Part shown: positions 2,650 through 63,878 of the stretch, piece after piece | Layout: the number at the start of each line of letters is the position of its first letter | Numbering within the stretch: position 1 is the stretch's first letter | Virus record (IMG/VR): IMGVR_UViG_3300031555_002578 | Origin: a virus | Taxonomy: Duplodnaviria; Caudoviricetes | DNA: 64,000 bases | Reading direction: 5' to 3' (one strand) | The notes under the pieces: model-generated | The model's database searches: none | What the model saw: the letters and a program-made list of their open reading frames with translations, nothing else | What the model was told of the DNA's origin: nothing | Program-made: the position numbers and the translations under genes

Positions 2650-3150
2650 TTAACAATCCCATTCTTCAAAACTCCAACCCATATTGCTTTCAATATCTTC
2701 AACATCGTTTTCCATCCATCTTCTATAGAAACCAATATGTTTCATTGATACATGGGTATCTGTGTAGTTAAGAAAATAATCCATATCGTCTTCTGGATTT
2801 AAAATACCACTATCAAGCAATTCTAAATCTGCAATAAGTTCTTTATGTTCTTCACAATCTTCCAATTCTTCAATAGTCATTTCGCCACTATCAACAAATT
2901 CTGTTTTTTCATTTTCCAGTGCTTCTAAAATATTATCTCTAATATCATCTTTCTGCTCTGTAAATGCGTAAGATAAATTTCTTGCACCTGTATAAAATAC
3001 ACCACGGAAGATACTGTTTAAACTTAAATCATTATTATCAATACAATCTTGAATAATATCATCCAAATCATATTTAATATCTTCTAACAACTCAAGGTCG
3101 CAATAACCACAATTTAAAATTTTAGTCAATACTGCCTGTTGTGTTGTCAT
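2650..3150 (-). CDS. hypothetical acidic protein (paralog of 3468-3842)
   Basis: GAGGTG SD before ATG 3150; shares L.CG..D and N..DTH motifs with neighbour. Confidence 0.8.
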   Translation of the reverse strand: MTTQQAVLTKILNCGYCDLELLEDIKYDLDDIIQDCIDNNDLSLNSIFRGVFYTGARNLSYAFTEQKDDIRDNILEALENEKTEFVDSGEMTIEELEDCEEHKELIADLELLDSGILNPEDDMDYFLNYTDTHVSMKHIGFYRRWMENDVEDIESNMGWSFEEWDC

Positions 3151-27545: not shown

Positions 27546-27620
27546 TCTCAAAATACCGAAAGCCTTGATTTTTCGGTACTTTGAGAAAATAAAAGGCGGT
27601 TTGTTTACCGCCTTATTTTC
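27546..27620 (-). terminator. two tandem hairpins after first early gene
   Basis: TTCTCAAAATACCGAAA...TTTCGGTACTTTGAGAA and AAGGCGGT-TTGTTT-ACCGCCTT. Confidence 0.55.
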
Positions 27621-27915
27621 ATTCAATAATTTCAAAATTTGTGATGCAAATATCAGCAAGGTAGCACATACAATTCTCAATATCCAAATAGAATTTTGCG
27701 TGTTTTTCGTTGCTATGTTCTACAATGTTTTTTGCAATTTCAAAAATATCATTCGTTGTGATGTTTTCTTGTTTTGCAAATTTTCTTGCGATTCTGTTAT
27801 TCCCAAAAAGCAAATTTTCATAATCCGCATTGTTTCCGCTTGTATACAAGTTATACTTGATACAAAAATTTCTTAAATCATAAGCGTTGATTCTTCTTGT
27901 TTCCTTAATTTTCAT
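27619..27915 (-). CDS. hypothetical protein, first gene of early arm
   Basis: GAGG SD; LRNFCIKYNLYTSG motif. Confidence 0.8.
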   Translation of the reverse strand: MKIKETRRINAYDLRNFCIKYNLYTSGNNADYENLLFGNNRIARKFAKQENITTNDIFEIAKNIVEHSNEKHAKFYLDIENCMCYLADICITNFEIIE

Positions 27916-27952
27916 AGTAAAACCTCTTTTCTGTATACTCTTTTTCCCATTG

Positions 27953-28247
27953 TAAAAACCTTGAATTTTCCGTATTTTTCAAGGCTTTTTCATAGGAAAA
28001 AAGGGGTTTTGCAACCCCTGTATTTTCTATGATAAAATCAGACCAAAATGGATTTTTAAGCATAAATCCGTAAAACTGCCGACTTACTTTTTCAGTCGCT
28101 TTTTTTGCTCTTGCCTGCCTGCCCCTGCCGACACCCTTCAAAGTTACTTTGAAGCCGTCATTCACTCACAGCCATTCTACAGGGACAAGTCAACCTGTAG
28201 TCGGTACTGATAAGGGATACCATTCCCGTAAGGGACTGCCCCTTACA
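27953..28247 (-). ncRNA. ~300-nt multi-hairpin leader / ncRNA
   Basis: Eight consecutive hairpins, GC-richer than flanks, immediately downstream of promoter 28254-28282. Confidence 0.6.
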
Positions 28248-28480
28248 CTTGATATGTTACTACAAGTCACAACGAAAAACAAGTACTTTTTAAGGATTTC
28301 ATTTATGTTTGTGCAAAATTACTTGAAATTCATTGTTTTTATATGTTTTTTGACCGTATTTTATACAATTTGCACAAAAACAGACTGAAATATATTTCAG
28401 TAAATGAACAAAAAAGTTTTGTATTTCTAAACTTTTTGTTTAATATATTAAAATCAGACCATAAAAAAGCCAAAAAACGG

Positions 28481-28651
28481 GAACACTTGTTTGCTTAATG
28501 CGAAAAAATATTCGTATAAATTAGCGAAAATTTTACATTGTGTTCGCTTTTGTTCGCCTTTTTTGAGTGAAAAAATGCTTAAATGAATAAAATTTTATTT
28601 ATTTATTGAAATATATTTTATTATCATTTTTGAGAATACGAATATATGTTC
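28481..28651. promoter_or_regulatory. two LexA (Cheo/SOS)-box-like sites
   Basis: GAACACTTGTTT 28481-28492; GAATATATGTTC 28640-28651. Confidence 0.45.
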
Positions 28652-28708
28652 TTTTTTTGCTGAAAATACCTCTTTTGTACTTGTATCACGCACATTTGTC
28701 TATGTATG

Positions 28709-28830
28709 GAAATACACCCTTCTCAGGCGTTTACAGGCGTTTACAGGCGTTTTTCGTATCTATGATAGAATAAATCAAGTTATGGTATAAATACGCTTAA
28801 ATAGGCGTATACGGCTTTATAACGGTATTC
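28709..28830. repeat. long imperfect inverted repeat (sso/ssi-like), copy 1
   Basis: (CAGGCGTTTA)x3-type repeat facing ACGCTTAAATAGGCGTATACGGCT. Confidence 0.5.
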
Positions 28831-28985
28831 TATGCTTTTTTCTGTATTATCTGCGGAAAATAGGCAAGGCAAGGAAACTGAAAAATAATTCACTCTTTTT
28901 TATGTTAGAATGAAATATATTTTAGTATATTACTTGAATAAACAATATTTTATTGATTGAATTATAATTCAGTCGCAGGTCGTAC

Positions 28986-29117
28986 ACTTTAGCGGAATAA
29001 AGTAACATATAAAACATATAGGAATTTAATACTTTGCAGTGATAAAGTAACCTACTTTGCAAATAGGATTTATTGTATTTTACTTGAGTAAAGTATCCTA
29101 GTGTTTTAGTATGTTAT
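28986..29117. repeat. three tandem ~45-bp composite repeats
   Basis: YTTTR-N6-TAAAG followed by CCTA-N10-TAGG-like box at 28986, 29031, 29077. Confidence 0.7.
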
Positions 29118-29345
29118 ACAAATTGCACAAAACATACTACCCTACTATGTTTTTGTTTATTTTGTATAGAATTTCAAATAAAATTGATATATATAAGGTA
29201 AAACTGAAATATTGCACAATTTATCATTTTTGAGAATTTTTTATAGTGCATATTGCATAATAACTTTACACTATTTTTTGTGCATATTGCAATATAGCAA
29301 CGGAAATTGTGCCTAATTTTAGACTGATTTTTGCCCTATTTTTTG

Positions 29346-29440
29346 ACGCCCCTTTGTACGGCGTTTTCTAAACTTATTTGATATGTTTATCAATCATATA
29401 AAAAAACGCTTAGACGGGCGTATACGGGCTTGTGGGGCGT
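29346..29440. repeat. long imperfect inverted repeat (sso/ssi-like), copy 2
   Basis: Nested stems ACGCCCC/GGGGCGT, GCGTTTT/AAAACGC, TTGATA/TATCAA. Confidence 0.55.
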
Positions 29441-29603
29441 GTGGTTTACCATAATTTTATATTTTACGGATATTCTCATTTTTGAGAAAATAAAGGAAAA
29501 TACTGTATACATGATAGAATTTTGATGCATCATGTGGTATTTGATACTATGTTATATGATATAATAATATGTGATATAGTTTTGAATACTACATATATGC
29601 TAC

Positions 29604-29873
29604 TATTCATATTATTTTAATAGGATTATATCATTGTATTCATATTCTAATTATAGGAATTGATAGTATAGTTTTCTGATAGGATTTATAATGAATAGTA
29701 AAATTGTAGGATATAAAAATAAAGCCTATCGGAATTATAGGCATTGAGAAGTATTCATAGATGCATTGTAGGAGTTAACTGTGGATAACTTTTATACCCT
29801 ACTGTATTTATAGGAATACTAGCCTGTGGATAAATTGTGGATAACTTTATTCATAGTAGAATTGTGGGGAATT
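29604..29873 (+). repeat. eight near-tandem 26-bp degenerate repeats (CymR/IscR-like boxes or iterons)
   Basis: Consensus WATNCMTANTNWWWTWRTAGGAWT at 29604, 29637, 29663, 29690, 29721, 29752, 29794, 29848. Confidence 0.75.
29780..29844 (-). promoter_or_regulatory. three perfect DnaA boxes (candidate replication origin)
   Basis: TGTGGATAA (= TTATCCACA) at 29780, 29825, 29836, at the gene-orientation switch. Confidence 0.75.
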
Positions 29874-30526
29874 ATCATTTTTGAGAATAATTTGATTTTC
29901 AAATTTATGTCGAAAATCTATCAATTAGCAGAAAATATAAATTTTATCTATAGATTTTTGCCCCTGTTTTTGTCCTTGTGTTATATACAGATGTGTTTAT
30001 ACAGAGGACACAAAACGGGGTCTGGTATAATCCCCACTATTTTAATAGGATATAATATACCAGAAATCTAGTGTCCTTGCCACAAAAACAAATGTCCACA
30101 GGTTGCACTTTCCCCAGAATTGCAATTACTTTGACACTGTATCACTTTACTTGACTAAAGCATGGGGGTACTTTAACATTTTAACGCACTAAAGCGTGTC
30201 CCACGGCACACAGAGCAACTCTATCTACACACCAAAGAAATTTTTACCTTAAATTTTTCACCACACGAATCTATTCACGATTTACTCCCCTATCCCCTAC
30301 TCCAAAAATGAAAATTTTATTTCAAAATACTCCCCTACTCTCCATTGGGTTTTCAATTTACTCCCAAAAACACCCCTCCCCTATCGTAAATTTAACGATA
30401 ATATTGTAATATTTTTTATAAAAAAATTCAATTTAATACAAATAAATCCTATTTTAAATCAAAAATGTAAAAATTTTATCTATTCTATATTTTTTAAATC
30501 TGCGTTCCTAAAACCAAAATATCAAC

Positions 30527-30555
30527 TTGCCAAAACCCCTCCCCTACCCTATAAT
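30527..30555 (+). promoter_or_regulatory. SigA-type promoter of DUF3825 gene
   Basis: TTGCCA-17-TATAAT. Confidence 0.7.
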
Positions 30556-30580
30556 ATACATTAAGAAAGGAGATGTTTTT

Positions 30581-31321
30581 ATGGAAATATACGATTATAT
30601 TTATTGGGGAGACTATAATAAACGTATGGATGAATTGGCAACTTTAACTAATGAAGAATGGAATTATGGCACACGCACAGATAATCATATTTTAAAAAAA
30701 TATATGAGACACACATATTGGAAATTAGAAGAAGAAGGTAAAGTAATTCGCACTGATTCTTATACTATTTTTAACACAGGTCTTTTCACTTCAATTTATG
30801 AACCAATTTATGTTTTAGCAAATAAAGCATCAGAAGGATATACAAGTGATTGGATATTTGCAGGATTTTATACTGAGTATGAACTTGGACATATTGGTAT
30901 TTATGAACTACCAGAAAGAGCAAATTATTTCCAAGACCCTTCCCTTCTTATTTTTGACCCAAATTGCAAAATTAACGTTCAATATAAACATATCCTTGAA
31001 GATGAAGATAATAAACGTAGACTAGAAGAAATTTTAGGAGAAAATCAAAATATTATCTCTTTGCTTCGTGGAGAAATAGAAATGATGAAGTTAAAAGTTT
31101 CTGCAAATTATAAATTAGCAGTGCCACAATATTTTAATGGCAAGATTCAACTTCTTCTTCCTCTTTGTTTAAATGATGGTGTTACACCAGACCTTGCTCT
31201 TGTAGTAACAAAAAATGATAGTGGTAATTTTTATCAAGGACATACTTGTTTAACTATTGACATGGCTTATAGTAATGCAAGATTAATAGCCAAACCTACA
31301 ACTAATTGGCTATTATTATAA
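30581..31321 (+). CDS. DUF3825 domain protein
   Basis: FNTGL, LAVPQYF.GKIQLLLPLCL, DLALVV, TCLTIDMAYSNARLI; AAAGGAG SD before ATG 30581. Confidence 0.85.
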   Translation: MEIYDYIYWGDYNKRMDELATLTNEEWNYGTRTDNHILKKYMRHTYWKLEEEGKVIRTDSYTIFNTGLFTSIYEPIYVLANKASEGYTSDWIFAGFYTEYELGHIGIYELPERANYFQDPSLLIFDPNCKINVQYKHILEDEDNKRRLEEILGENQNIISLLRGEIEMMKLKVSANYKLAVPQYFNGKIQLLLPLCLNDGVTPDLALVVTKNDSGNFYQGHTCLTIDMAYSNARLIAKPTTNWLLL

Positions 31322-32018: not shown

Positions 32019-32097
32019 ACTATACTTTTGTATAGTCAACTGAACCACCCCCCGTTCAGCACACTATACTTTTGTCCCATGAACTGAACCACCCCCC
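32019..32097 (+). repeat. two direct repeats at 44-bp period upstream of wHTH gene
   Basis: ACTATACTTTTGT-N6-AACTGAACCACCCCCC at 32019 and 32063. Confidence 0.85.
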
Positions 32098-32128: not shown

Positions 32129-32887
32129 ATTAAAAAACAATATTTTACAAAAGTTCCAAATAGCTATATTCAATGCAATATTAAAAACAAATTTGGCATA
32201 AGTAGAAAATTTTATATTACCTATATTTTGATTGACAGATATCGTTCTTATGAAGATTTTAGTTGGGTAACAATTAAAAAAATTATGGAATTCTATGGAT
32301 ATAAAGCAAATAAGAATAAGCCAAAAACATTTAATGAGATATTAGATATTTTAGAATATATGATTAATAATGAAATGATTGAGGTTGCCCAAGATTTAGA
32401 TAGTTTATCTTATGATACTGGAATTGAAATTAAAATAAATGCCAAAAATTTTGATTGCCCTGAGAGATTTACAAAATTAGAATCTTATCAGTTAGACCAC
32501 ATTCTTACAGCAGAAACATCTTTAAATAAAGAAAATATATTAATGGCATTTCTTTACATTTCTTCTTATATTGGATGCAGAAAAAGAAATGAAGATGGCT
32601 CTGAATTAGAAAACCCACAAAATAATCCAGAAGCATTTTGGAAAAGCATCAATAATATGGCAAAAGATTTGGGTATGTCTAAATCTACAATATATCAATG
32701 TATTGATTATCTTACTACATACAATAATGATACTCCCCCACTTTTAATTAAACATAATATTTCTGAATTTAATAATGAAGAAAATTTAACTGGACTTCCT
32801 TCTATTTATGTTCTAAACAAAAAAGGATATGAAAATGAAATTAAATGGGCTATTAACAAAATGAAAGAAATTTACGATATTAAATAA
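32129..32887 (+). CDS. winged-helix DNA-binding protein (replication-initiator-like), probable ATT start
   Basis: AAGGAG SD then in-frame ATT; N-terminal FTKVPN; EAFWKSINNMAKDLGMSKSTIYQCIDYL HTH. Confidence 0.7.
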   Translation: MKKQYFTKVPNSYIQCNIKNKFGISRKFYITYILIDRYRSYEDFSWVTIKKIMEFYGYKANKNKPKTFNEILDILEYMINNEMIEVAQDLDSLSYDTGIEIKINAKNFDCPERFTKLESYQLDHILTAETSLNKENILMAFLYISSYIGCRKRNEDGSELENPQNNPEAFWKSINNMAKDLGMSKSTIYQCIDYLTTYNNDTPPLLIKHNISEFNNEENLTGLPSIYVLNKKGYENEIKWAINKMKEIYDIK

Positions 32888-33959: not shown

Positions 33960-34242
33960 TATTCCTTTAGAAGAACAGGAAACAGTTATTCATTTTATGC
34001 GTGGAGAAGATTTTGCTACTATTTCTACAACTGATAGTACAATGATTACTAAAATGACTAAATTATGTGACAATAATCCAGATATGTATAAAGTTATTAA
34101 TGAAGATGGTGCTTCAAAAATATATCGTTGTTACGATAAATCTATGGTTAGTCTAAGACAGAAAAAACGTGAAGTAACAGAAGAACAAAGAAAAGCCGCA
34201 GGTGAACGCATGAGGAAATATCAAGCAAGTAAAAATACATAA
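33946..34242 (+). CDS. conserved hypothetical protein
   Basis: AAGGAG SD; EQETVI...TEEQRKAAGERM motif. Confidence 0.75.
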   Translation: MANYNIPLEEQETVIHFMRGEDFATISTTDSTMITKMTKLCDNNPDMYKVINEDGASKIYRCYDKSMVSLRQKKREVTEEQRKAAGERMRKYQASKNT

Positions 34243-34388
34243 TGCGTTGTTTTATGCCAAATTTTAAAGATAGACTATTGTATAGAATTGATATATTATA
34301 TCGGTTTATTAATTTATCATCTAAAATGATATGTTTTCTATTCAATAGTCTATCTTTGATTATTAATATTAAAATGGAGGTGTTTCTA

Positions 34389-37016
34389 ATAGGAGAATTT
34401 GGATTAAAAATAAAAAATATAGAAGCAAGTACATTGTATGAATATAATATTGGGATTCGTGACCACTATGATTATAAAGAAGCAATGTTTACAAATAGTT
34501 TATTTTTTGATTTTCTTATGGAAAATGGTATGACTACTTGGAAAGAAGAAAGTACAAGAGATATTATTTGTTTGGAATTTAATTTTGGCACTCGTTCTTA
34601 TGAGCAAGAAATAGAACATATTACAAAGATTGCTCACAATGCTAGAAATGAATATAAACTTGCTAAATCTTTAAAAAATAAAAACGAGATTGAGAAAAAA
34701 TATAATAAAAGAAAAAAAATTCAATCTCTTTATTTAGAAGCAAAGAAAAATAAAGATAAATATAAAAAAATTTCTAAAGAAGAAATTAGACGTATTTTTT
34801 ATAATGATGGTGTAAATGTTGAATATGTATCTCGCAAAAAAGATGGCACAATAAAGAAAGTTGAAACAATTCATTATAAAATGCTCTATCGTAGCACTGG
34901 TAAAGCAAAAAAAGGTTCTTGTATGTTTATAAGAGATAAATTATATAAAAAAGCAAAAGATTTTTTATATATGGGAATTAAACTATCTAAAAAGAATCCT
35001 ATGATTGTTGAAATTAGTGCTTATGCCCCTCTTGTTTCTTCTACAATTGTAGACAAAATTAAAATCAATCCAAGAAATATTTTAATTTTAGAAGATATTG
35101 ATAGATTTTTTACTACAGATGTTGTAAGTATTGAAACGAATGAAAATAAGGAATGTATAGCAAAACATATACAGAACTATAAATTAAAAAACACATTGTT
35201 TGATGGACAAGCATTAATAGATAGCAGTATATTCCCTTCTTGGGGGAATGGATACATTCTTTTAAGGCATCATTTTACTAAAATGGCTGCATTTTGTGCT
35301 CATATTCAAGATTTTTTTAAAGATTATTTTGGAGATAAATATGATACAGCAACAGTATTGGATATGTTTGGCAATGAACATTATGTGAAAGATATTCAAT
35401 TAATTACAACAGACAACGCAGTGAAATGGCTAAAGTTTGATAAAACATATGATTATTGGTGCAATAAAGTTGAAGAAAATGGATGTAATTTTGGTATTGT
35501 AAAAACAGCACATGAAAGTAAACTCGGCTCTGTTCAAAAAATGAGTTATCAGATGGTGAATTCGTTGGATGAATCAATTATGCAAAATGTAATGAAAGAA
35601 AGTATTCAATATGTTGAAAGATTAAAACAAGATGATGATTTCTTTTTAGAATATTTAAAGAAAAACAGTAATTTTTCAAATGATTATGAAGTATTGATTG
35701 CTTTATGCGAACAAGATAGAGATTTTTTAAGGAGTAGTTATTTTAGACATAGAAAAGAATTTATAATTAAAAATTATGTTCTAAATATGAAAACAGGCAA
35801 GATTATTCAAAATGCAGAAAATCTTGTTATTGTTGGTTCTCCATATGCTATGTTATTATATGGTGCTACTGGAAATAAAAATATTGTTGATGAAGACCCT
35901 ACTTTTAATATTGAAGAAAATACTATTCAATGTTATACAGAAAGATTTGAAGATGGGGATTATTTGGCATTTTTTAGAAGTCCTTTTAATTCAAAGAATA
36001 ATCTCACATATTTACATAATTACAAACATGAATTATTAAAAAAATATTTTGAGTTTGGAGAACAAATCGTTGCAGTTAATTTGAATGGGACAGATTTCCA
36101 AGATAGAAACAATGGTTCAGACCAAGATTCAGACAGTGGATACTGTACAAATCAACCAGATATTGTAGAACATGCAAGACAATGTTATTTAAACTATCAT
36201 ACTATTGTAAACAATATTCCAAAAGATAAAAATGTTTATGAGAACACAATGGATGATTATGCAAAAATAGATAATGCTCTCGCAGGTTCTCAAAGAGATA
36301 TTGGAGAATCTAGTAATCTTGCTCAGATGGCTCAAACATATGCATGTAATTTTTCTGACCAAAAATATATAGATTATGTTTGTATATTAAGTGTTTTGGC
36401 TCAGGTTGCTATAGACAATGCAAAACGTAGATTTGATATTGATTTGGCAGGAGAAATTCGTAGAATTAAAAAAGATTTAGATATTAAAGAAAATAAATAT
36501 CCTAGTTTCTGGAGATTAATACGCAGAGATACCAAGTTTGAAAAGATAAATTGTAATTTAAAATGTCCAATGAATTGTTTGTATGATGTTGATTTAAATA
36601 AATTTAGAAAAAATTCCTCTACATTGCCAATGGATGTATTTTTTCAAAAATTTGAATTAGAACAAAACAGAAAAACTTGTAAAAAAGTTGAAGAATTAAT
36701 TCATAAATATTCTTTAAAAACTTTTGAGTATAATACTTCTGATGATGATAATTATAGAGATGAACAATATTTATTATTAAGGAATGATTTTAATGATTTA
36801 ATTAGCAACATTCAAAGAATTTATTTGTCTAGTAATTATATTGGATTAATGTCTTGGCTTATTGATAGGGCTTTTATGATTACACCAAACATTAATAGTA
36901 ATCATAAAGTAATACAAACAAAAATACATACAAATAAAGCAATTTTATTAAAAGTTTTATATCAAGTAAATTCAACAAATTTACTAAAAATATTTGCAAA
37001 AAATGTGCAAATTTAA
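34389..37016 (+). CDS. yonO: YonO-like single-subunit (double-psi-barrel) DNA-dependent RNA polymerase, probable ATA start
   Basis: FDGQ, LRHHF.K.AAF, SYQM, FRSP and NNGSDQDSD (DxDxD) motifs; GGAGGTG SD upstream of in-frame ATA; position ahead of late genes as in SPbeta. Confidence 0.8.
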   Translation: MGEFGLKIKNIEASTLYEYNIGIRDHYDYKEAMFTNSLFFDFLMENGMTTWKEESTRDIICLEFNFGTRSYEQEIEHITKIAHNARNEYKLAKSLKNKNEIEKKYNKRKKIQSLYLEAKKNKDKYKKISKEEIRRIFYNDGVNVEYVSRKKDGTIKKVETIHYKMLYRSTGKAKKGSCMFIRDKLYKKAKDFLYMGIKLSKKNPMIVEISAYAPLVSSTIVDKIKINPRNILILEDIDRFFTTDVVSIETNENKECIAKHIQNYKLKNTLFDGQALIDSSIFPSWGNGYILLRHHFTKMAAFCAHIQDFFKDYFGDKYDTATVLDMFGNEHYVKDIQLITTDNAVKWLKFDKTYDYWCNKVEENGCNFGIVKTAHESKLGSVQKMSYQMVNSLDESIMQNVMKESIQYVERLKQDDDFFLEYLKKNSNFSNDYEVLIALCEQDRDFLRSSYFRHRKEFIIKNYVLNMKTGKIIQNAENLVIVGSPYAMLLYGATGNKNIVDEDPTFNIEENTIQCYTERFEDGDYLAFFRSPFNSKNNLTYLHNYKHELLKKYFEFGEQIVAVNLNGTDFQDRNNGSDQDSDSGYCTNQPDIVEHARQCYLNYHTIVNNIPKDKNVYENTMDDYAKIDNALAGSQRDIGESSNLAQMAQTYACNFSDQKYIDYVCILSVLAQVAIDNAKRRFDIDLAGEIRRIKKDLDIKENKYPSFWRLIRRDTKFEKINCNLKCPMNCLYDVDLNKFRKNSSTLPMDVFFQKFELEQNRKTCKKVEELIHKYSLKTFEYNTSDDDNYRDEQYLLLRNDFNDLISNIQRIYLSSNYIGLMSWLIDRAFMITPNINSNHKVIQTKIHTNKAILLKVLYQVNSTNLLKIFAKNVQI

Positions 37017-44205: not shown

Positions 44206-45210
44206 ATAGCCTACAAAGTTAAATCTAGGGAAGAAAAAAATGTTGAGGAATTAAATTCATCTGTAACAATTAATATTGATGCAGATTTTTTTATGAAAAA
44301 ACAAATTCAAAGAAATGAAAAAAAATATAAATGTACTTGTTGTGGTGGTAGTTGGGATAATCGGAAAACTCATTTTTCTAAATCATCCTCCCCTCTTTAT
44401 CAATCTAATGATGGATATTTAACTATATGTAATGAGTGTAGAGATAAATATTTTTTTAAGTTAGTAGATTTATATTCTGGAAATGAAGCCCATGCAATGA
44501 GACATATGTGCCAACAGTTTGATATTATTTTTCACATTGATGCATTAAATGCTTCTCGTCAGGTTAGTTCCGATAAAAGTAGATTTGCATATTATCTTCA
44601 AAAAAAGAATTTAGGTCAAACTGCAAGAGCAGGTACTACATATATTGATGGAATCAAATATGATTGGATTCACAGAGAAGATGATATTATTGAAAGTATG
44701 GAGCAAATAAAACAGGATGATATTTCTGTAAAGGCTACAACATTAGAAAGATGGGGTTTAGGATTTTCTGAAATGGATTATAAGGTTTTAGAAGACCATT
44801 ATAAAATGTTAAAGAAAAATAATCCTAACTGCGATAATAACCAAGAAATATTTATTAAATCTCTTTGTAATATTAATATGCTAATGGTAAGAGCACTTAG
44901 AGATGGTGATTCTGATAAGTATGTAAAATTAACAGACCAATATAGTAAGACTTTTACTAAAGCAGGTTTAAAAACTATTCAAGAAATTGATAATAGTGCA
45001 AATGAAAGTATGGGTGTTACTTTGTCTGTTATTGCTCAATATACTCCTGAAGAATATTATAAAGATAAAAAATTATATGATGATTTTGATGGTCTAGGTT
45101 CTTATTTTACTAGGTTTGTAAGAAGACCATTAAAAAATTTAATGACTGGTTCTACTGAACGAGATAAAGAATTTTATGTAAAAGATAAGTCAGGTGATAA
45201 TGATGAATAA
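44206..45210 (+). CDS. zinc-finger protein upstream of terminase (terminase small subunit candidate), probable ATA start
   Basis: CTCC / CNEC motifs; directly precedes large terminase; AAGGTG SD before in-frame ATA. Confidence 0.65.
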   Translation: MAYKVKSREEKNVEELNSSVTINIDADFFMKKQIQRNEKKYKCTCCGGSWDNRKTHFSKSSSPLYQSNDGYLTICNECRDKYFFKLVDLYSGNEAHAMRHMCQQFDIIFHIDALNASRQVSSDKSRFAYYLQKKNLGQTARAGTTYIDGIKYDWIHREDDIIESMEQIKQDDISVKATTLERWGLGFSEMDYKVLEDHYKMLKKNNPNCDNNQEIFIKSLCNINMLMVRALRDGDSDKYVKLTDQYSKTFTKAGLKTIQEIDNSANESMGVTLSVIAQYTPEEYYKDKKLYDDFDGLGSYFTRFVRRPLKNLMTGSTERDKEFYVKDKSGDNDE

Positions 45211-47021: not shown

Positions 47022-48662
47022 ATGCCTGAAGAAAGTAAAAAGAGGGGCAGACCTCCTAAAGTAAAACAAGAAGAAGTTGTTGAAACAAATAACGTTATTG
47101 ACAATACTAATTATGAATTTAATAGTTTTGTGGCAAATGGTAGTTTAATTGAAGCAGTTTTTTCTTGTGGTGTATTTAATTATTTTAGTAAAAATCAAAT
47201 TGATAATATTTTAAAAGACCCAATTACATATCATGAAGAAGCAATTAGATTGTCTAACTTTGTGTATGGTAAGAATGGTATTGTAGCGAATTCTATTGAT
47301 TATATGATTTCCCTACCCTGTTTAGATAAAATTATTATCAATAAAAATAAAAAAACAACTCAAGCAGTTAAAAAAAATAAAGCACTAATGAAAGCAACTC
47401 TTAATACAATTGATGATAAAACTTTTATTAGAAATGCTTTGTTTACACAAATGTTAGATGGTATTGCATTTTATTATTTTGAAACTAGAAAAAAGAAAAC
47501 AGACAACTCTAAATTTTTAAGTGATTATGAAGTTGAACATATTTATGAGATTAATGCTCTGGATGAAGCAAGTATTAATGCGTCCATTATTTCACTGCCT
47601 TGGCAATATACAAAAATTGTTGGTAAGAAAAATGGAAGATATGTTCTGGCTTTTAATTTAAGATATTTTGATGATTATACTGGTGAATCTTTAGACAGAA
47701 AATTAAGAAAATATCCATTAGAAATTGTTGAAGCATATAATACTAGAAAAAGTAATCCAACACAACATGGTGATTGGTATATTTTAGATAGTGATAAAAC
47801 AATGTGTCGTAAAATTAAATGTAAAGATTCTGAACCTTGGGGAAGAAGCGTTGTTATTGCTTCATTAGAAGATGTTTTGTATAAAGATTATTTTGTTGAT
47901 ACTAAAAGAAATGTCTTAGATGAAGTAAATAATAAGATTATTTATCAAACATTCCCAGAAGGTAAAGATAAAGGCACATGTGCTTTAACAAAAACACAAC
48001 AGGAACAACAACACTCAACTGTAAAACAAGCAGTTATGGGGAAAAACAGAAGAAATGGAGTAAGTTTCTTTAGTGTTGCTTCTGGTACAAAATTAAATTC
48101 TATTGATGTAGATATTGATATTTTTGATTCTAAAAATGAATCTGAGTTAAATAATCAAATTTCTCTTGATTTAGGTGTTTGTGCTTCTTTGATTGGTGCT
48201 ATGAGTACAGGTAATTTTGCGGCAGGTCAATCAAACTTAGAAATGATTACTGCACAATTATATTCTTGGATACATGAATGGCAAAATGAATTAAATCATG
48301 TTATTAACAAAAATATCATTCAAGATGAAAAGAATAGAGTTGAAATTTATTACTTCCCTACTTCATTTGTAAATAGACAATCATTTTTTGATATGATGAA
48401 ATCTTTATATAGTGAAGCAAGTGGCTCATTATCTTTCTTAATTGCTAGTACAGGTGTAGATGTTGATGCATATTTGTCTGTATTGGATATGGAAATTGCT
48501 GAAGGTTATTTTGAAAAATATTTACCTCATATGACAGCGTATACGAATAATGGGGATTCTTCTGGTGGTAGACCAGAAGAAAAGAATCCTACAAATGAAA
48601 ATACATTGCAGTCAAAAGCAAATAAAAGTAATGATATGCCTAAACCATCTACAAATAAATGA
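47022..48662 (+). CDS. portal protein
   Basis: 546 aa, follows terminase; EPWGRS, C-terminal GGRP. Confidence 0.8.
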   Translation: MPEESKKRGRPPKVKQEEVVETNNVIDNTNYEFNSFVANGSLIEAVFSCGVFNYFSKNQIDNILKDPITYHEEAIRLSNFVYGKNGIVANSIDYMISLPCLDKIIINKNKKTTQAVKKNKALMKATLNTIDDKTFIRNALFTQMLDGIAFYYFETRKKKTDNSKFLSDYEVEHIYEINALDEASINASIISLPWQYTKIVGKKNGRYVLAFNLRYFDDYTGESLDRKLRKYPLEIVEAYNTRKSNPTQHGDWYILDSDKTMCRKIKCKDSEPWGRSVVIASLEDVLYKDYFVDTKRNVLDEVNNKIIYQTFPEGKDKGTCALTKTQQEQQHSTVKQAVMGKNRRNGVSFFSVASGTKLNSIDVDIDIFDSKNESELNNQISLDLGVCASLIGAMSTGNFAAGQSNLEMITAQLYSWIHEWQNELNHVINKNIIQDEKNRVEIYYFPTSFVNRQSFFDMMKSLYSEASGSLSFLIASTGVDVDAYLSVLDMEIAEGYFEKYLPHMTAYTNNGDSSGGRPEEKNPTNENTLQSKANKSNDMPKPSTNK

Positions 48663-59627: not shown

Positions 59628-62600
59628 ATGCCTAGAAATGTGGATGGCGAAATCATTGTTGGTATTGATATACCTGCGTCAACCAAAATTGTAGAATCTG
59701 ACATAAGAAAATTATTGCAAAATTTAACAACTCTTGAAGCAAAAATAAATCATGCTGATTTAACGGATAATGCAAAACAAGAGTTGAGAAAACAAATAAA
59801 TGATATTAAAAATTTAACAGCAAATGTGGAACATCTTGCCTTAGATGATACTGCTAAACAAGAATTCAGAAATGCTGTTGGAAAAGTAAATAATTTAACT
59901 GCAAACATACAAAATGTTAAGTTAGACCCCTCTTTTCAAAAAAATTTACAGACTGCTTTAAATGGTCTAACTGGTCTTACAATTAATATTAGCGGATTCA
60001 ATATTAATCCTAATGCAGTTAAAAATGCAGGTCAACAAGTAGGGAAATTAATAAGTGATTCTGCAATGAAAACGATTGACAGAGTTACTTCTGAAGGAAT
60101 TGAGATTCCTTTTACTGTTTCTTCTCAAGGTAGCCAAGCATTTAAAGACCAAATGAAGAAATTAGTTGCTGATTGGACTAATAATAAAGGTGCTTTAACC
60201 GATATCAAGATTAATACATCTACTTCTTGGGATAATAAATTACAACAAAATGTTGAAAAATTAACTGGAGCAGTTGTAACATATAATAATGAACTTGGTG
60301 AAACAATTCAAAAACATATTGCTTTAAGAAAAATTGGTGAAGGTACTGATAAAAAAGGCAATAAAGTTGATAAAATGGGATTTGTTGAAACAAGTGCCAT
60401 TTATCGAAAAACTTTGAACGTTGCTTCTGTTGCAATGGACAAGTTTGAATCAAAACAAAAAATTGCTTCTGCAAGGATTGAAAACAATCTTAAAAGATTA
60501 GCAAGAGAATATTCTGACCCAAATGCATCTAAACCAATTAATGAACAAGGACACATTTCTTCTCTTGCAACGCAGTATGATAAGGTAAAACAGGCTATTG
60601 CTGATATGCGTTCTGCAAGTAAAGATACTTTTGTAGATGCAGAATTAGAAGCAAAGAAACAGATTTCTATTTTACAAAGTTTAGTAAAAGAATATAGAAA
60701 TGCTGAAACTGTTGCAAGTAAAATGAAAGCAGTTGATATTAGTTCTGGTGTACAGATTGCAACTGCTGATTTCAATAAACTTAAAGCAGATGCACAAGGT
60801 TTGGGCTTAGATATTACTAAATTAGAGAAAGCATTTGAAAATTTAGAAAAAACTCAAACTGCAAGTAATTTAAATGTTTTTAATGATGCATTAAGAACTT
60901 CTCGTGCTGAATTACAAGCATTAAAATCACAAATCAATGCTGATAGCAAACAAGAAATTTTTAATGTAAAAAAACAAGGATTAACAGAAGCCATTAAAGA
61001 ATGGAAGAAATTACATCCTGAAGCAAAAAATTTTAATAAAGAAATTGATGGTGTTAATACTACTGTTGATAGTTTATTAAAAAGATTAAAAAAAGTATCT
61101 ACAGATGCAGACCTTAGAGGAATTACATCTGTTTGGGAAATGTATTCTAAGTCTGCTGAAAAAGCATATAAAGATACTGAAAAAATATATCAACTTGCAG
61201 ACATAACTGCAAAAAATCTTCTTCATATTTCTGTACCACAGAGAGGTACAAATAATGTAATGCCAGTAATTGAAAAAATGGCTAGAGATAATAATTGGTC
61301 AAATTTCAATGTTAGTGGTGTTCAAGAAGACGATGGCAAGATTAAAAAATTAACTCTTACAGTTACAGAAGCAACTGGAGAAATTAAGAAATTTAATCTT
61401 GAAAGAAGAAAAATGCAAAGTGGCGGTCAAAACTTTAATGGATTGCTCCAAGTTGGAGATGTACAAGTTATTAAAACTGCTACTCAAGCACAATATGAAT
61501 TAAATAAAGCACAGAGAGAATCTGATGCAAAAACATTATTCTCCAGACAAAAAGAAGCATATCAAGAAATTTGGAATATCAGAAAACAACTTGCAAAATT
61601 GGATGAAACTGATGAAACTAATTATGCTCATGTTCAAGCACTTAAAGAAGAAGAAAAAGTCTGGAAAGATATTTGTGAAAGTGCGACTTTACAGTTAAGA
61701 CTTTATGAAGATATTATAACAGCACAAGAACGTTCTGTTGCTTTAAGTGAAATTAAAGATAAAGCACAAAGTAATATCAATATTCAACAAGGCAAAGATG
61801 CATCTAAAATTGCAAAAGCAGAACAACAAGAAGATATTGCAATTGCAAATAAATTACTTTCTGACCAAAAAAGAAAATATGAAGAAATTTGGAAGATAGA
61901 AAAGCAGATTGCATATGCAAGTGAAAATGGTAAAACAAATCTTGTTTCTCAATTATCAAGTAGAAAATCTGATTTAGAAAAAGAATATTCCATCATTTCT
62001 AAAGAATTAGATAAATATGATGCAATTATTGATAGAGAAGAACAATCTGCGAAATTAGCAGATGTTCGTGCAAAAGCAGAACATGAAATTTTATCTATTA
62101 CTGCAAAAGAATTAGATAAAATGAATGATATTGCTAAAAAGGAAGAAGAACGTTTAGCAAAGAAAGCACAATCTGACCATGATGCTAAACAAGCCATGTA
62201 TGAAAAATTATGGTTTGATTATGATAATGGAAATCTTAATAAAGTAAAAACAATCGATGATAATGTAGCAAATAATACATATGCTACACAAATCAACGAT
62301 TTAATTACTAAATATAAACAATATGGCTTAACTGTTGACCAAGCAGAAGATAAAGTAAGAGAATTACGTTCTACTTTGGCAACAATGAGTAATGCTGATA
62401 AGTCTGCTGAAGAAAGAATCAAAGCAGAAGAACGTTATCAACAGGCATTAAAAAAAAGTCAAAATGAAGTAAAAGTGTATTCTCAAAATCAACGTGGTCT
62501 TGCCACAGACCAACAGCGTTTGGCTTTGGCAAATACTATGGAAGCATTTTTACAGAAAAATACTAGAATTACTGCAAAAGCAAGACAAGAAACAGAAATG

Positions 62601-63878
62601 TATATTGCCACTCTTAGAAATTTAAATTCTGAGATGACAGTAGTTGCTAAGAACGAAATTAATAATTCTTTTAAACAGATGCAGAATAATATGCGTGTTC
62701 TTGGCAAACTTGGCTATGCCTTAAAAGACCAGATGAAACAAGCAACTGGTAGTTTTGTTCAATGGTTCTCTGTAAGTAATTTGGTTATGAGTGGCATTTA
62801 TCATGGTAGAAGTGCCATTACAGAACTTAAAGAAATTGATACATACTTAACAGAAATTAGCAAGGCTAATAATGAGTTAACAAAATCTGAACTTGCAGAT
62901 ATTGGTAATCGTTCTTTTGATATTGCAAGTAATTATGGTAAAACTGCTACAGACTTCTTATCTGCTGTACAAGAAGCATCTCGTGCAGGTTATAAAAACG
63001 CAGAAGGAATTGCTGAATTATCTACTGCGGCTCAAGGTGCAGGTGACATGACTTCTGATGTTGCAAATCAAATGTTAATTGCAACAGATAAAGCATATAA
63101 AATGAATGGTGCTGTTGATTTATTAAGAAATACCCTTGATGGTATGAACTTTATTACTAACAACAATGCCGTTAATATGACTGAATTATCTGAGGGTATG
63201 ACAATTGTTGCATCCACTGCCGCTTCTTTTGGTGTTGGTGTTAATGAATTAACAGCAGCATTAGGTACAATGTCTGCAACAACACAGCAAAGTGGTTCTG
63301 AAGTTGCTCGTGCTTTTAGGGCTATCCTCTTAAATATCAGACAAGTTTCTGATGAAGAAGAAGGAATTGATGCAGAAGGTTTAACAAAATATGAAAGAGC
63401 ATGTAATGCTTTAGGGGTTAAATTAAAAGAAACAAAAGATGGGGTTCTTTCTTTGCGTGACCCTATGGAAGTTTTGAAAGAATTATCTGAAGAATATGTT
63501 AAACTTGATGAAAGTGATATCCGTAGAACTAATTTACTGAATTCTGTCGGTGGTAAACTAAGAGCAACACAATTAGATGCTTTATTACGTCAATGGTCTA
63601 TGTATGAAAAGATGCTTGGCGAATATGAAGCAGGTATCGGCTCAATGGCAGTCGAAGCAGAAAAAACTGCTAACTCTTGGGAAGGTAGTTTAAATCGTTT
63701 AAGTAATACTTTTGCTGACACTATTGGCAATATTGCAAATTCTGATGGTGTGATTACACTCATCAATTCTTTAAATGAATTATTACAAATTATAAATAAA
63801 TTAACTGATTCTTTAGGGTCTTTTGGCTCTATTGGTATGATTGGTTCTGCCATTTTAGGCGGTAAAGGGTTAGGATAA
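59628..63878 (+). CDS. tail tape measure protein (TP901-type core), probably 5' exon of a split gene
   Basis: Long helical protein; C-terminal ELKEIDT.LTEI.K, ATTQQSGSEVARAFR, VGGK.RA core. Confidence 0.9.
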   Translation: MPRNVDGEIIVGIDIPASTKIVESDIRKLLQNLTTLEAKINHADLTDNAKQELRKQINDIKNLTANVEHLALDDTAKQEFRNAVGKVNNLTANIQNVKLDPSFQKNLQTALNGLTGLTINISGFNINPNAVKNAGQQVGKLISDSAMKTIDRVTSEGIEIPFTVSSQGSQAFKDQMKKLVADWTNNKGALTDIKINTSTSWDNKLQQNVEKLTGAVVTYNNELGETIQKHIALRKIGEGTDKKGNKVDKMGFVETSAIYRKTLNVASVAMDKFESKQKIASARIENNLKRLAREYSDPNASKPINEQGHISSLATQYDKVKQAIADMRSASKDTFVDAELEAKKQISILQSLVKEYRNAETVASKMKAVDISSGVQIATADFNKLKADAQGLGLDITKLEKAFENLEKTQTASNLNVFNDALRTSRAELQALKSQINADSKQEIFNVKKQGLTEAIKEWKKLHPEAKNFNKEIDGVNTTVDSLLKRLKKVSTDADLRGITSVWEMYSKSAEKAYKDTEKIYQLADITAKNLLHISVPQRGTNNVMPVIEKMARDNNWSNFNVSGVQEDDGKIKKLTLTVTEATGEIKKFNLERRKMQSGGQNFNGLLQVGDVQVIKTATQAQYELNKAQRESDAKTLFSRQKEAYQEIWNIRKQLAKLDETDETNYAHVQALKEEEKVWKDICESATLQLRLYEDIITAQERSVALSEIKDKAQSNINIQQGKDASKIAKAEQQEDIAIANKLLSDQKRKYEEIWKIEKQIAYASENGKTNLVSQLSSRKSDLEKEYSIISKELDKYDAIIDREEQSAKLADVRAKAEHEILSITAKELDKMNDIAKKEEERLAKKAQSDHDAKQAMYEKLWFDYDNGNLNKVKTIDDNVANNTYATQINDLITKYKQYGLTVDQAEDKVRELRSTLATMSNADKSAEERIKAEERYQQALKKSQNEVKVYSQNQRGLATDQQRLALANTMEAFLQKNTRITAKARQETEMYIATLRNLNSEMTVVAKNEINNSFKQMQNNMRVLGKLGYALKDQMKQATGSFVQWFSVSNLVMSGIYHGRSAITELKEIDTYLTEISKANNELTKSELADIGNRSFDIASNYGKTATDFLSAVQEASRAGYKNAEGIAELSTAAQGAGDMTSDVANQMLIATDKAYKMNGAVDLLRNTLDGMNFITNNNAVNMTELSEGMTIVASTAASFGVGVNELTAALGTMSATTQQSGSEVARAFRAILLNIRQVSDEEEGIDAEGLTKYERACNALGVKLKETKDGVLSLRDPMEVLKELSEEYVKLDESDIRRTNLLNSVGGKLRATQLDALLRQWSMYEKMLGEYEAGIGSMAVEAEKTANSWEGSLNRLSNTFADTIGNIANSDGVITLINSLNELLQIINKLTDSLGSFGSIGMIGSAILGGKGLG

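Follow-up and report, generated by a model that had tools for sequence, protein, structure and literature searches.

Why should a large phage keep some 2.7 kb of DNA without a gene, crowded with repeats, at the point where its genes change direction? The question is raised by a 64,000-nucleotide stretch (the window) that is the reverse strand of positions 1992-65991 of one 97,207-base contig, IMG/VR virus record IMGVR_UViG_3300031555_002578. Its source is a large gut Bacillota phage encoding a YonO-like RNA polymerase. Up to ~27.9 kb the genes are nearly all small minus-strand genes; from 30.6 kb onward they lie on the plus strand, and the gene-strand switch of the contig is the site of the gene-free block. 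An initial annotation had seen in this block a tiling of binding sites for many host regulators and offered three readings: a regulator sponge, a protein-loading pad at the first-injected genome end, or an origin that integrates host metabolic state. We read the block as four modules, not one device. From left to right these would be a structured leader RNA for the leftward arm (27985-28290, minus strand), a fast-shuffled operator mosaic (28290-29525) where phage proteins of ribbon-helix-helix (RHH) or helix-turn-helix (HTH) type would bind and set early transcription, a DnaA-assisted, plasmid-like (theta) replication origin (29530-30060), and a unique inverted repeat, G-run element and G-poor leader that would head the rightward arm (30100-30580). 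We consider it somewhat better than an even bet that two functions are combined here, divergent control of the two arms and a probable DnaA-assisted origin, with phage regulators acting on the mosaic.

Gene content and repeats of the block

The absence of open reading frames (ORFs) that first drew attention to the block was borne out: no credible ORF of at least 60 amino acids (aa) was found under the tables tested (table 11; TGA=W, table 4; TAG=Q, code 15; TAA=Q), each of the six frames being interrupted by stops along its length. Alternative genetic codes were rejected as an explanation, the block staying closed under each code tried. Its true limits are 27916-30580 (~2.7 kb), wider than the 28300-30200 given earlier. 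A phage-database DNA search returned no match to the block, and an Rfam search found no family in it or in the blocks of relatives.

The block is the most repeat-dense 2.66-kb segment of the 97-kb contig. It has 40 12-mers that occur at least twice (4.6±3.0 in 200 dinucleotide shuffles) and seven that occur at least three times (0.04 in shuffles). This k-mer statistic is unbiased. The motif patterns, on the other hand, were defined after inspecting the sequence, so the per-motif enrichments that follow are optimistic; host-regulator sites were judged by simple consensus strings and not by curated matrices. Counts are given as block / shuffle mean / rest of contig per block length.

Nearly all the motif families of the initial annotation are present and enriched over shuffles, the ARG-like family being the weakest. 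The pattern TCATTTTTGAGAA (4 / 0.01 / 0.03) has all four copies on the same strand and none elsewhere in the 97-kb contig; in full it is a 16-bp imperfect palindrome, TTMTCATTTTTGAGAA. It was considered as a SigH, CodY or sigma-70 element and rejected, there being no consistent fit by eye. The perfect DnaA box TTATCCACA scores 3 / 0.03 / 0.03, TAGGAWWT 7 / 1.0 / 0.68, CTTTA-N6-TAAAG with at most one mismatch 6 / 0.38 / 0.31, and TTGCACAA 4 / 0.12 / 0.28, with TGCATATTGCA occurring twice in addition. T[AC]GGA units listed in the block number 11, and most of those at 29019-29811 have a similar upstream context. The LexA-like pattern CGAAC-N4-GTTCG with at most two mismatches scores 3 / 0.20 / 0.28, each site being two mismatches off consensus. 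For the ARG-like pattern TGAAT-N4-ATTCA with at most one mismatch the count (2 vs 0.43 in shuffles) is not significant; a loose ARG-like 18-mer reaches 17 vs 5.7 and overlaps the TGAAATATATTTCA palindrome family. Families beyond those first listed are CAGGCGTTTA (three tandem copies), GGCGTATACGG (two copies) and TGAAATATATTTCA (three copies).

What relatives keep and what they exchange

Which of these repeats matter to the phage? Relatives were found via homologs of a DUF3825 protein and a winged-helix protein, both encoded in the rightward arm, and more than 160 related loci are present in IMG/VR alone. Their common layout is a leftward arm, a gene-poor block and a rightward arm with a YonO-like polymerase, and their blocks are also repeat-dense (z 2.7-9.6, vs -0.7 and 1.4 in coding controls).

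The close relative L023 (DUF3825 protein ~98% and winged-helix protein 95% identical) aligns only at 28675-29096 (93%) and 29526-30700 (90%); 28290-28674 is unalignable and 29097-29525 is replaced. The L023 block is without TCATTTTTGAGAA copies 1-3 and without the LexA-like sites, all of which lie in the two non-shared stretches, and it retains the ARG-like palindromes at 28879 and 28958, in the segment that is 93% conserved. In the aligned parts 6.5% of motif positions have changed, vs 10.8% of spacer positions (Fisher p = 0.007). That motif positions change less than spacers suggests that the motifs are functional and yet swapped; going by this comparison of sequences, the block motifs appear to be functional elements that are exchanged as cassettes. 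The constraint is uneven: DnaA-box positions show 0 changes, and iteron positions (see below) have changed at nearly the spacer rate, 8.4% vs 10.8%. The expectation that relatives would keep the host-type motifs while their spacers diverged did not hold in general: the DnaA boxes are kept, but the LexA-like sites and three of the four TCATTTTTGAGAA copies are gone in L023.

The same boxes persist over greater distances. In L009 and L012 the rest of the block is unalignable, yet the trio of DnaA boxes is still present, and TCATTTTTGAGAA, TTGCACAA and TGAAATATATTTCA are absent apart from one two-mismatch TCATTTTTGAGAA match in L009. The layout of one box plus a pair, and its orientation, are the same in L011, L023, L009 and L012. 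Loci L018/L019 and L020-L022, which were reached via the winged-helix protein (64% identity) and are without DUF3825, each have four perfect co-oriented DnaA boxes in the equivalent place.

The conserved core as a candidate origin

The three perfect DnaA boxes (TGTGGATAA; 29780, 29825 and 29836, together 29780-29844) are a single box and a tandem pair 11 nt apart. They fall within 65 nt, and all are on the plus strand, co-oriented with the rightward arm. Beside them, at 29590-29820 and also on the plus strand, are iteron-like units of ~23 nt with the form TTCATAnTATTTTnnTAGGAWWT. This is the cluster that had been called CymR/IscR-like; the repeated units are there, but ATAGGAAT is the 3' part of the longer iteron. 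The units are degenerate and their start-to-start spacings are 33, 26 and 27 nt. One unit, TATTCATATTATTTTAATAGGAT, is 91% conserved in L009, and the iteron flank ATATAGTTTTGAATACTA (29574-29591) is identical at 18 of 18 positions in L020, whose other block matches are short (~14 nt). On the far side of the boxes the 16-bp palindrome recurs for the fourth time as TTATCATTTTTGAGAA (29872-29887); after it come AT-rich DNA (29888-29960) and a long imperfect hairpin (29960-30022) that holds a 14-nt tandem repeat (29977-30005). These features were read from the sequence, with support from the composition profile and the alignment with L011.

DnaA boxes, iterons, an AT-rich region and a nearby two-winged-helix rep gene are combined in iteron replicons such as P1 oriR, F, pSC101 and RK2. 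By analogy, host DnaA on the boxes and a phage initiator on the iterons would bring about opening of the adjacent AT-rich DNA, and the candidate for that initiator would be the two-winged-helix protein encoded at 32129-32887 on the plus strand.

This 252-aa protein is weakly Rep-like, as judged from its predicted structure. Its gene probably starts at an ATT codon at 32129, 8 nt past GGAG: in full-length alignment, homologs cover 33 residues upstream of the listed TTG start. The homologs are numerous (826 matches, ~64% identity), and there is no Pfam or NCBIfam match above cut-off. The model has two winged helices (pLDDT 74.6). The top Foldseek matches are RepE54 and Rep-DUE (DNA-unwinding-element) complexes (E 0.03, TM 0.3), VIA-align gives Z 5.8 for the Pi initiator and Z 5.9 for RctB over 177-185 residues, with generic winged-helix matches at Z 6-7. 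Over its full length the protein is matched best by three iteron initiators, RepE, Pi and RctB. Atlas neighbours of the protein carry HTH_36. It is of note that two direct repeats (32019-32097) precede the gene, each with a CTGAAC-CACCCCCC-GTTCAG hairpin with a C-rich loop. The DUF3825 protein was also considered as an initiator and was rejected, its confident model (pLDDT 90.8) having only weak matches, to RelE/ParE-like toxin folds. The DUF3825 family is common in Lachnospiraceae genomes and in these phages.

Calling this core an origin is difficult for several reasons. In the first place, the candidate initiator resembles Rep proteins weakly in structure (E 0.03, TM 0.3, Z <6), no more than it does generic winged-helix proteins. 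Second, the AT-rich stretch by the boxes is surpassed in AT content elsewhere in the block: 78% at 29850-29949, against 82-91% in other parts. Third, the DnaA-trios after the box pair (29825, 29836) are not conserved, the flank TAG GAA TAC TAG-CC having no counterpart in L009 or L012. An oriC-type basal unwinding system was rejected for this reason, although the box pair is present. Fourth, the minimum of the cumulative GC skew of the whole contig falls at the block, but phage GC skew mostly mirrors gene orientation, so this minimum is not independent evidence for an origin.

Finally, in 66 of 72 IMG/VR loci the 5 kb upstream of the Rep-like gene hold no perfect DnaA box; three co-oriented boxes within 400 nt occur in only one of the 72, and at least two in five. 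Boxes are missing as well from L013-L016 and L001. The rule that DnaA boxes always accompany the Rep-like gene fitted the first few loci compared and was rejected when it failed in the 72. Where boxes do lie upstream of the gene in IMG/VR relatives, all are co-oriented with the rightward arm (10 vs 0). Since most carriers of the Rep-like gene lack them, DnaA boxes are not obligatory in the module; they are an optional, lineage-specific addition to a conserved control/origin module. For the same reason we infer an origin here and do not assert one. That said, of the three initial readings the origin is the best supported, and only for ~29530-30060; the idea that it integrates host metabolic state found no support.

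The operator-like mosaic and transcriptional control

What, then, are the other repeats for? Repeat families and the comparison with L023 mark 28290-29525 (strand not assigned) as an operator-like mosaic of palindromes and direct repeats. It contains TTGTGCAAA/TTGCACAA at 28309, 28370, 29123 and 29212, TGAAATATATTTCA palindromes at 28386, 28607 and 28911, LexA-like sites at 28480, 28501 and 28639 (spanning 28480-28652), the first three copies of TTMTCATTTTTGAGAA at 28621, 29221 and 29473, the three tandem copies of CAGGCGTTTA at 28724-28752, GGCGTATACGG at 28804 and 29417, the two ARG-like palindromes already mentioned, three copies of a 45-nt composite repeat at 28985-29110, and TGCATATTGCA at 29247 and 29281.

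More distant relatives point to the proteins that may bind such repeats. Small RHH genes lie inside the block in L012, L014, L001 and L033, and HTH genes in L013, L016 and L001; these have no counterpart inside the block of the window or of L009. GGCGTT repeats of the window type recur beside the RHH genes of L012 and L014 (AGGCGTTTACAGGCGTTT stands ~90 nt upstream of the L014 gene), and in L033 a different triple repeat follows the RHH gene. Lineage-specific repeats beside lineage-specific small regulators suggest co-evolving phage operators, unlike conserved host-regulator sites. To judge from these juxtapositions, the mosaic repeats are most likely bound by phage-encoded small proteins of RHH/HTH type.

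If so much of the block may consist of operators, could all of it? In that case it would be purely a transcriptional switch for immunity or early control, the DnaA boxes would themselves be operators at which DnaA regulates or is titrated, and replication would begin elsewhere. The block does lie between divergent arms and has a strong sigma-70 promoter; relatives have RHH/HTH regulator genes inside their blocks; palindromes such as dimeric repressors bind are frequent among the repeats; most relatives are without DnaA boxes; and the contig carries two tyrosine recombinases, which suggests a temperate lifestyle. Against this, AT-rich DNA and hairpins separate the boxes from the putative rightward start, 320-385 nt downstream, a long way for promoter control, and origins typically have such groups of three to four perfect boxes in strict co-orientation next to phased iterons. 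The number of sigma-70-like promoters in the block is moreover at shuffle level (22 vs 19.8). We regard a switch alone as a serious though rather unlikely alternative, and continue to favour the composite of control region and origin.

The right edge: inverted repeat, G-run and G-poor tract

An inverted repeat, AGTTGCA-N13-TGCAA(C)T (30101-30127), and a G-run element, GGGGGTACTTTAACATTT (also written GGGGGTAnnTTTACATTT; 30164-30181), both on the plus strand, are unique in the 97-kb contig. The two are conserved, with one compensatory pair, in L011, L009, L012, L014 and L001, and are found also in L018 and L020. They are followed by a non-coding tract of ~360 nt (30200-30580, plus strand) that is G-poor (5% G) and C-rich, with CCCCTA five times. 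A 5% G tract occurs also in L009 (6760-6990) and L012 (960-1330), and a G-poor tract is upstream of the winged-helix gene in 40 of the 40 relatives listed. The order of inverted repeat, G-run element and G-poor tract is kept across the group. A G-run and then a G-poor tract are seen in 18 of 72 IMG/VR relatives, often 3-8 nt past a -10-like hexamer, and the position of this hexamer just before the G-run in many relatives suggests a transcription start. We accordingly suppose that the G-run element may be the rightward start, and the G-poor tract may act as leader RNA, as C-rich regulatory RNA or as a site where Rho loads. At the end of the tract, TTGCCA-17-TATAAT (30527-30555, plus strand), a sigma-70-type promoter scoring 11/12, precedes the ribosome-binding site of the DUF3825 gene.

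A different polymerase could be at work here. The phage encodes a YonO/RdRP (RNA-dependent RNA polymerase)-like enzyme, and for 30100-30580 only it might be proposed that the inverted repeat and G-run are the promoter or start of that enzyme and the G-poor tract its leader RNA. The element is unique in the contig, heads the arm with terminase, portal and tail genes, and is the group's most widely conserved non-coding sequence. There is a parallel in SPbeta, where YonO initiates the late operon at a single position, upstream of yonK and a non-coding RNA that lacks annotation (PMC5467207). Yet the -10-like hexamer before the G-run in many relatives fits the host sigma-A polymerase, and the polymerase gene is downstream of the element, so that host polymerase must read the rightward arm first. 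The SPbeta start, for its part, is not placeable on the SPBc2 record with the coordinates given, and the shared GCATGGGGGT may be chance. A YonO-type promoter here is in our view unlikely.

Host-factor titration and the genome-end reading

Do any of the sites serve to capture host regulators? Two versions of this idea were weighed. In one the block is a multi-protein landing pad: amplified DnaA boxes, possibly with the ARG- and LexA-like palindromes, titrate host regulators, and the same DNA is origin, switch and reprogramming decoy. This we think quite improbable. The other version, in which amplification of the block titrates ArgR, LexA, CymR/IscR and DnaA and so derepresses host regulons, we hold to be very improbable. 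Several families that exceed their shuffle counts do resemble host-regulator consensus strings, L023 retains the ARG-like palindromes at 28879 and 28958, and three perfect DnaA boxes at high copy would inevitably bind DnaA. Apart from DnaA, however, there is no full match to a host consensus, the LexA-like sites having two mismatches. The LexA-like sites and three of four TCATTTTTGAGAA copies are missing from the near-identical L023, and TCATTTTTGAGAA, TTGCACAA and TGAAATATATTTCA from L009 and L012 save for the single imperfect match noted above; the supposed CymR half-site belongs to a longer, phage-specific iteron; and relatives encode their own small DNA-binding proteins beside the repeats. 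The multi-regulator sponge is consequently not supported: judged by the consensus strings used, only the DnaA boxes match a host consensus perfectly, and they are the block's one credible host-factor motif family.

The last proposal, that the block is a protein-loading pad at the first-injected genome end, similar to the T5 injection-stop region, is scarcely credible: short metagenomic contigs of L010, L011, L012, L013 and L015 do end in or near the block, and the leftward arm begins with many small genes that differ between relatives, as is typical of early or accessory genes, but repeat-rich mosaic DNA is where assemblies would be expected to break, the 97-kb contig lacks a terminal repeat and has the block in its interior, as do contigs of 58, 102 and 133 kb from relatives, the terminase gene is 14.6 kb off, and the distant cultured relative PMBT24 is reported to be a circularly permuted pac-type phage (PMC11035940). 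PMBT24 was considered as a direct analogue and rejected, its junction being 0.8 kb of AT-rich DNA with no DnaA box by visual reading.

The left module and the gene neighborhood

At the head of the leftward arm, 27985-28290 (minus strand) has the features of a structured RNA or long 5' leader. Its folding z-scores are -3.3 (minus strand) and -3.9 (plus strand), and a terminator-like hairpin with a U-run (28019-28002, minus strand) ends the element upstream of the first leftward gene. The element is homologous in L023, with nine compensatory pairs, a figure that comes from two sequences only. Its likely role is that of a leader, or a small RNA, belonging to the leftward arm.

Two minus-strand neighbors may be a split or truncated gene. 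The 164-aa product of 27013-27507 matches only the C-terminal half of the 312-position PHROG profile phrog_15863, and a hairpin lies between its gene and an upstream 98-aa ORF (27619-27915). A split ArdC-like gene was rejected, there being no similarity to the ArdC-N protein of L009. Among the leftward small genes of L016 there is a type II hammerhead ribozyme (3023-3090, minus strand; 47.4 bits vs a gathering score of 37), unrelated to the block and the single match that Rfam gave.

The rightward arm, all on the plus strand, opens with the DUF3825 gene (30581-31321; ATG at 30581, preceded by the ribosome-binding site AAGGAG). A 152-aa gene is second, between the DUF3825 and winged-helix genes, and after the winged-helix gene come a dCMP deaminase gene, the 924-aa YonO/RdRP-like RNA polymerase (34242-37016), and a beta-CASP nuclease gene followed by two tRNA genes. 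The terminase gene is at 45194, 14.6 kb downstream of the block, the portal gene at 47022 and a 1416-aa ORF at 59628-63878; tail genes are also carried on this arm. Besides the two tyrosine recombinases, the contig encodes a ParB-like protein and, truncated where the contig ends, GroEL. The winged-helix protein recurs in identical form on a contig of 179 kb, which makes a true genome size above 97 kb probable.

Significance and comparison with known systems

This group of large, uncultured phages of gut Bacillota is widespread and abundant, and its members carry a YonO-type polymerase. An identified origin/control region would give handles on replication, lysogeny control and promoter use. The block also carries a warning: AT-rich phage DNA may be dense with sequences that look like host-regulator sites without being such, and most of those seen here turn over between near-identical phages. 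Its most interesting loose ends are the group-wide G-run with G-poor leader and the patchy perfect DnaA boxes.

How does the block compare with what is known? The pre-early/injection-stop region of T5 is terminal, repeat-rich non-coding DNA that is said to include DnaA boxes; the present block is internal in every long contig examined. DnaA-titrating loci, such as datA of E. coli and the DnaA-box clusters of B. subtilis, likewise have clustered high-affinity boxes outside oriC, which would sequester DnaA increasingly as copy number rises. Here there are only three boxes, and they are embedded among iterons and AT-rich DNA.

SPbeta (L106) has a 1.7-kb ORF-free gap (29154-30834, minus strand) between yonN and yonK, the reported starting place of the late transcript that depends on YonO. 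The gap resembles the block in being a long ORF-free stretch that heads the structural-gene operon of a phage with a YonO-type polymerase. It differs in lying downstream of yonO, in not being G-poor and in having no DnaA boxes by visual reading, and no sequence homology between the two was shown. The gap does contain GGCATGGGGGTGCC, which resembles GCATGGGGGTAC of the window; this may be chance.

Phage switch and immunity regions (lambda OL/OR, the lysogeny-management region of SPbeta) share more: they too lie between divergent units and are rich in palindromic operators, relatives have genes for small repressors in the corresponding region, and close relatives rapidly exchange mosaic segments. 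The present block is far larger (2.7 kb gene-free), has at least eight distinct repeat families, and in the window phage and L009 has no regulator gene inside it.

The iteron theta origins (P1 oriR, F oriS, pSC101, RK2 oriV, R6K gamma) are alike in having clustered perfect DnaA boxes, and the block has possible counterparts of their phased direct repeats (~20 nt), of the AT-rich DNA next to them and of the two-winged-helix gene close by. The differences are that here DnaA boxes are lacking in most relatives that carry this gene, the iteron units are degenerate and recur at irregular intervals of 26-33 nt, two other genes and 2.3 kb of DNA separate them from the candidate rep gene, and the whole element sits in a phage of ~97-179 kb, within a far larger mosaic non-coding block.

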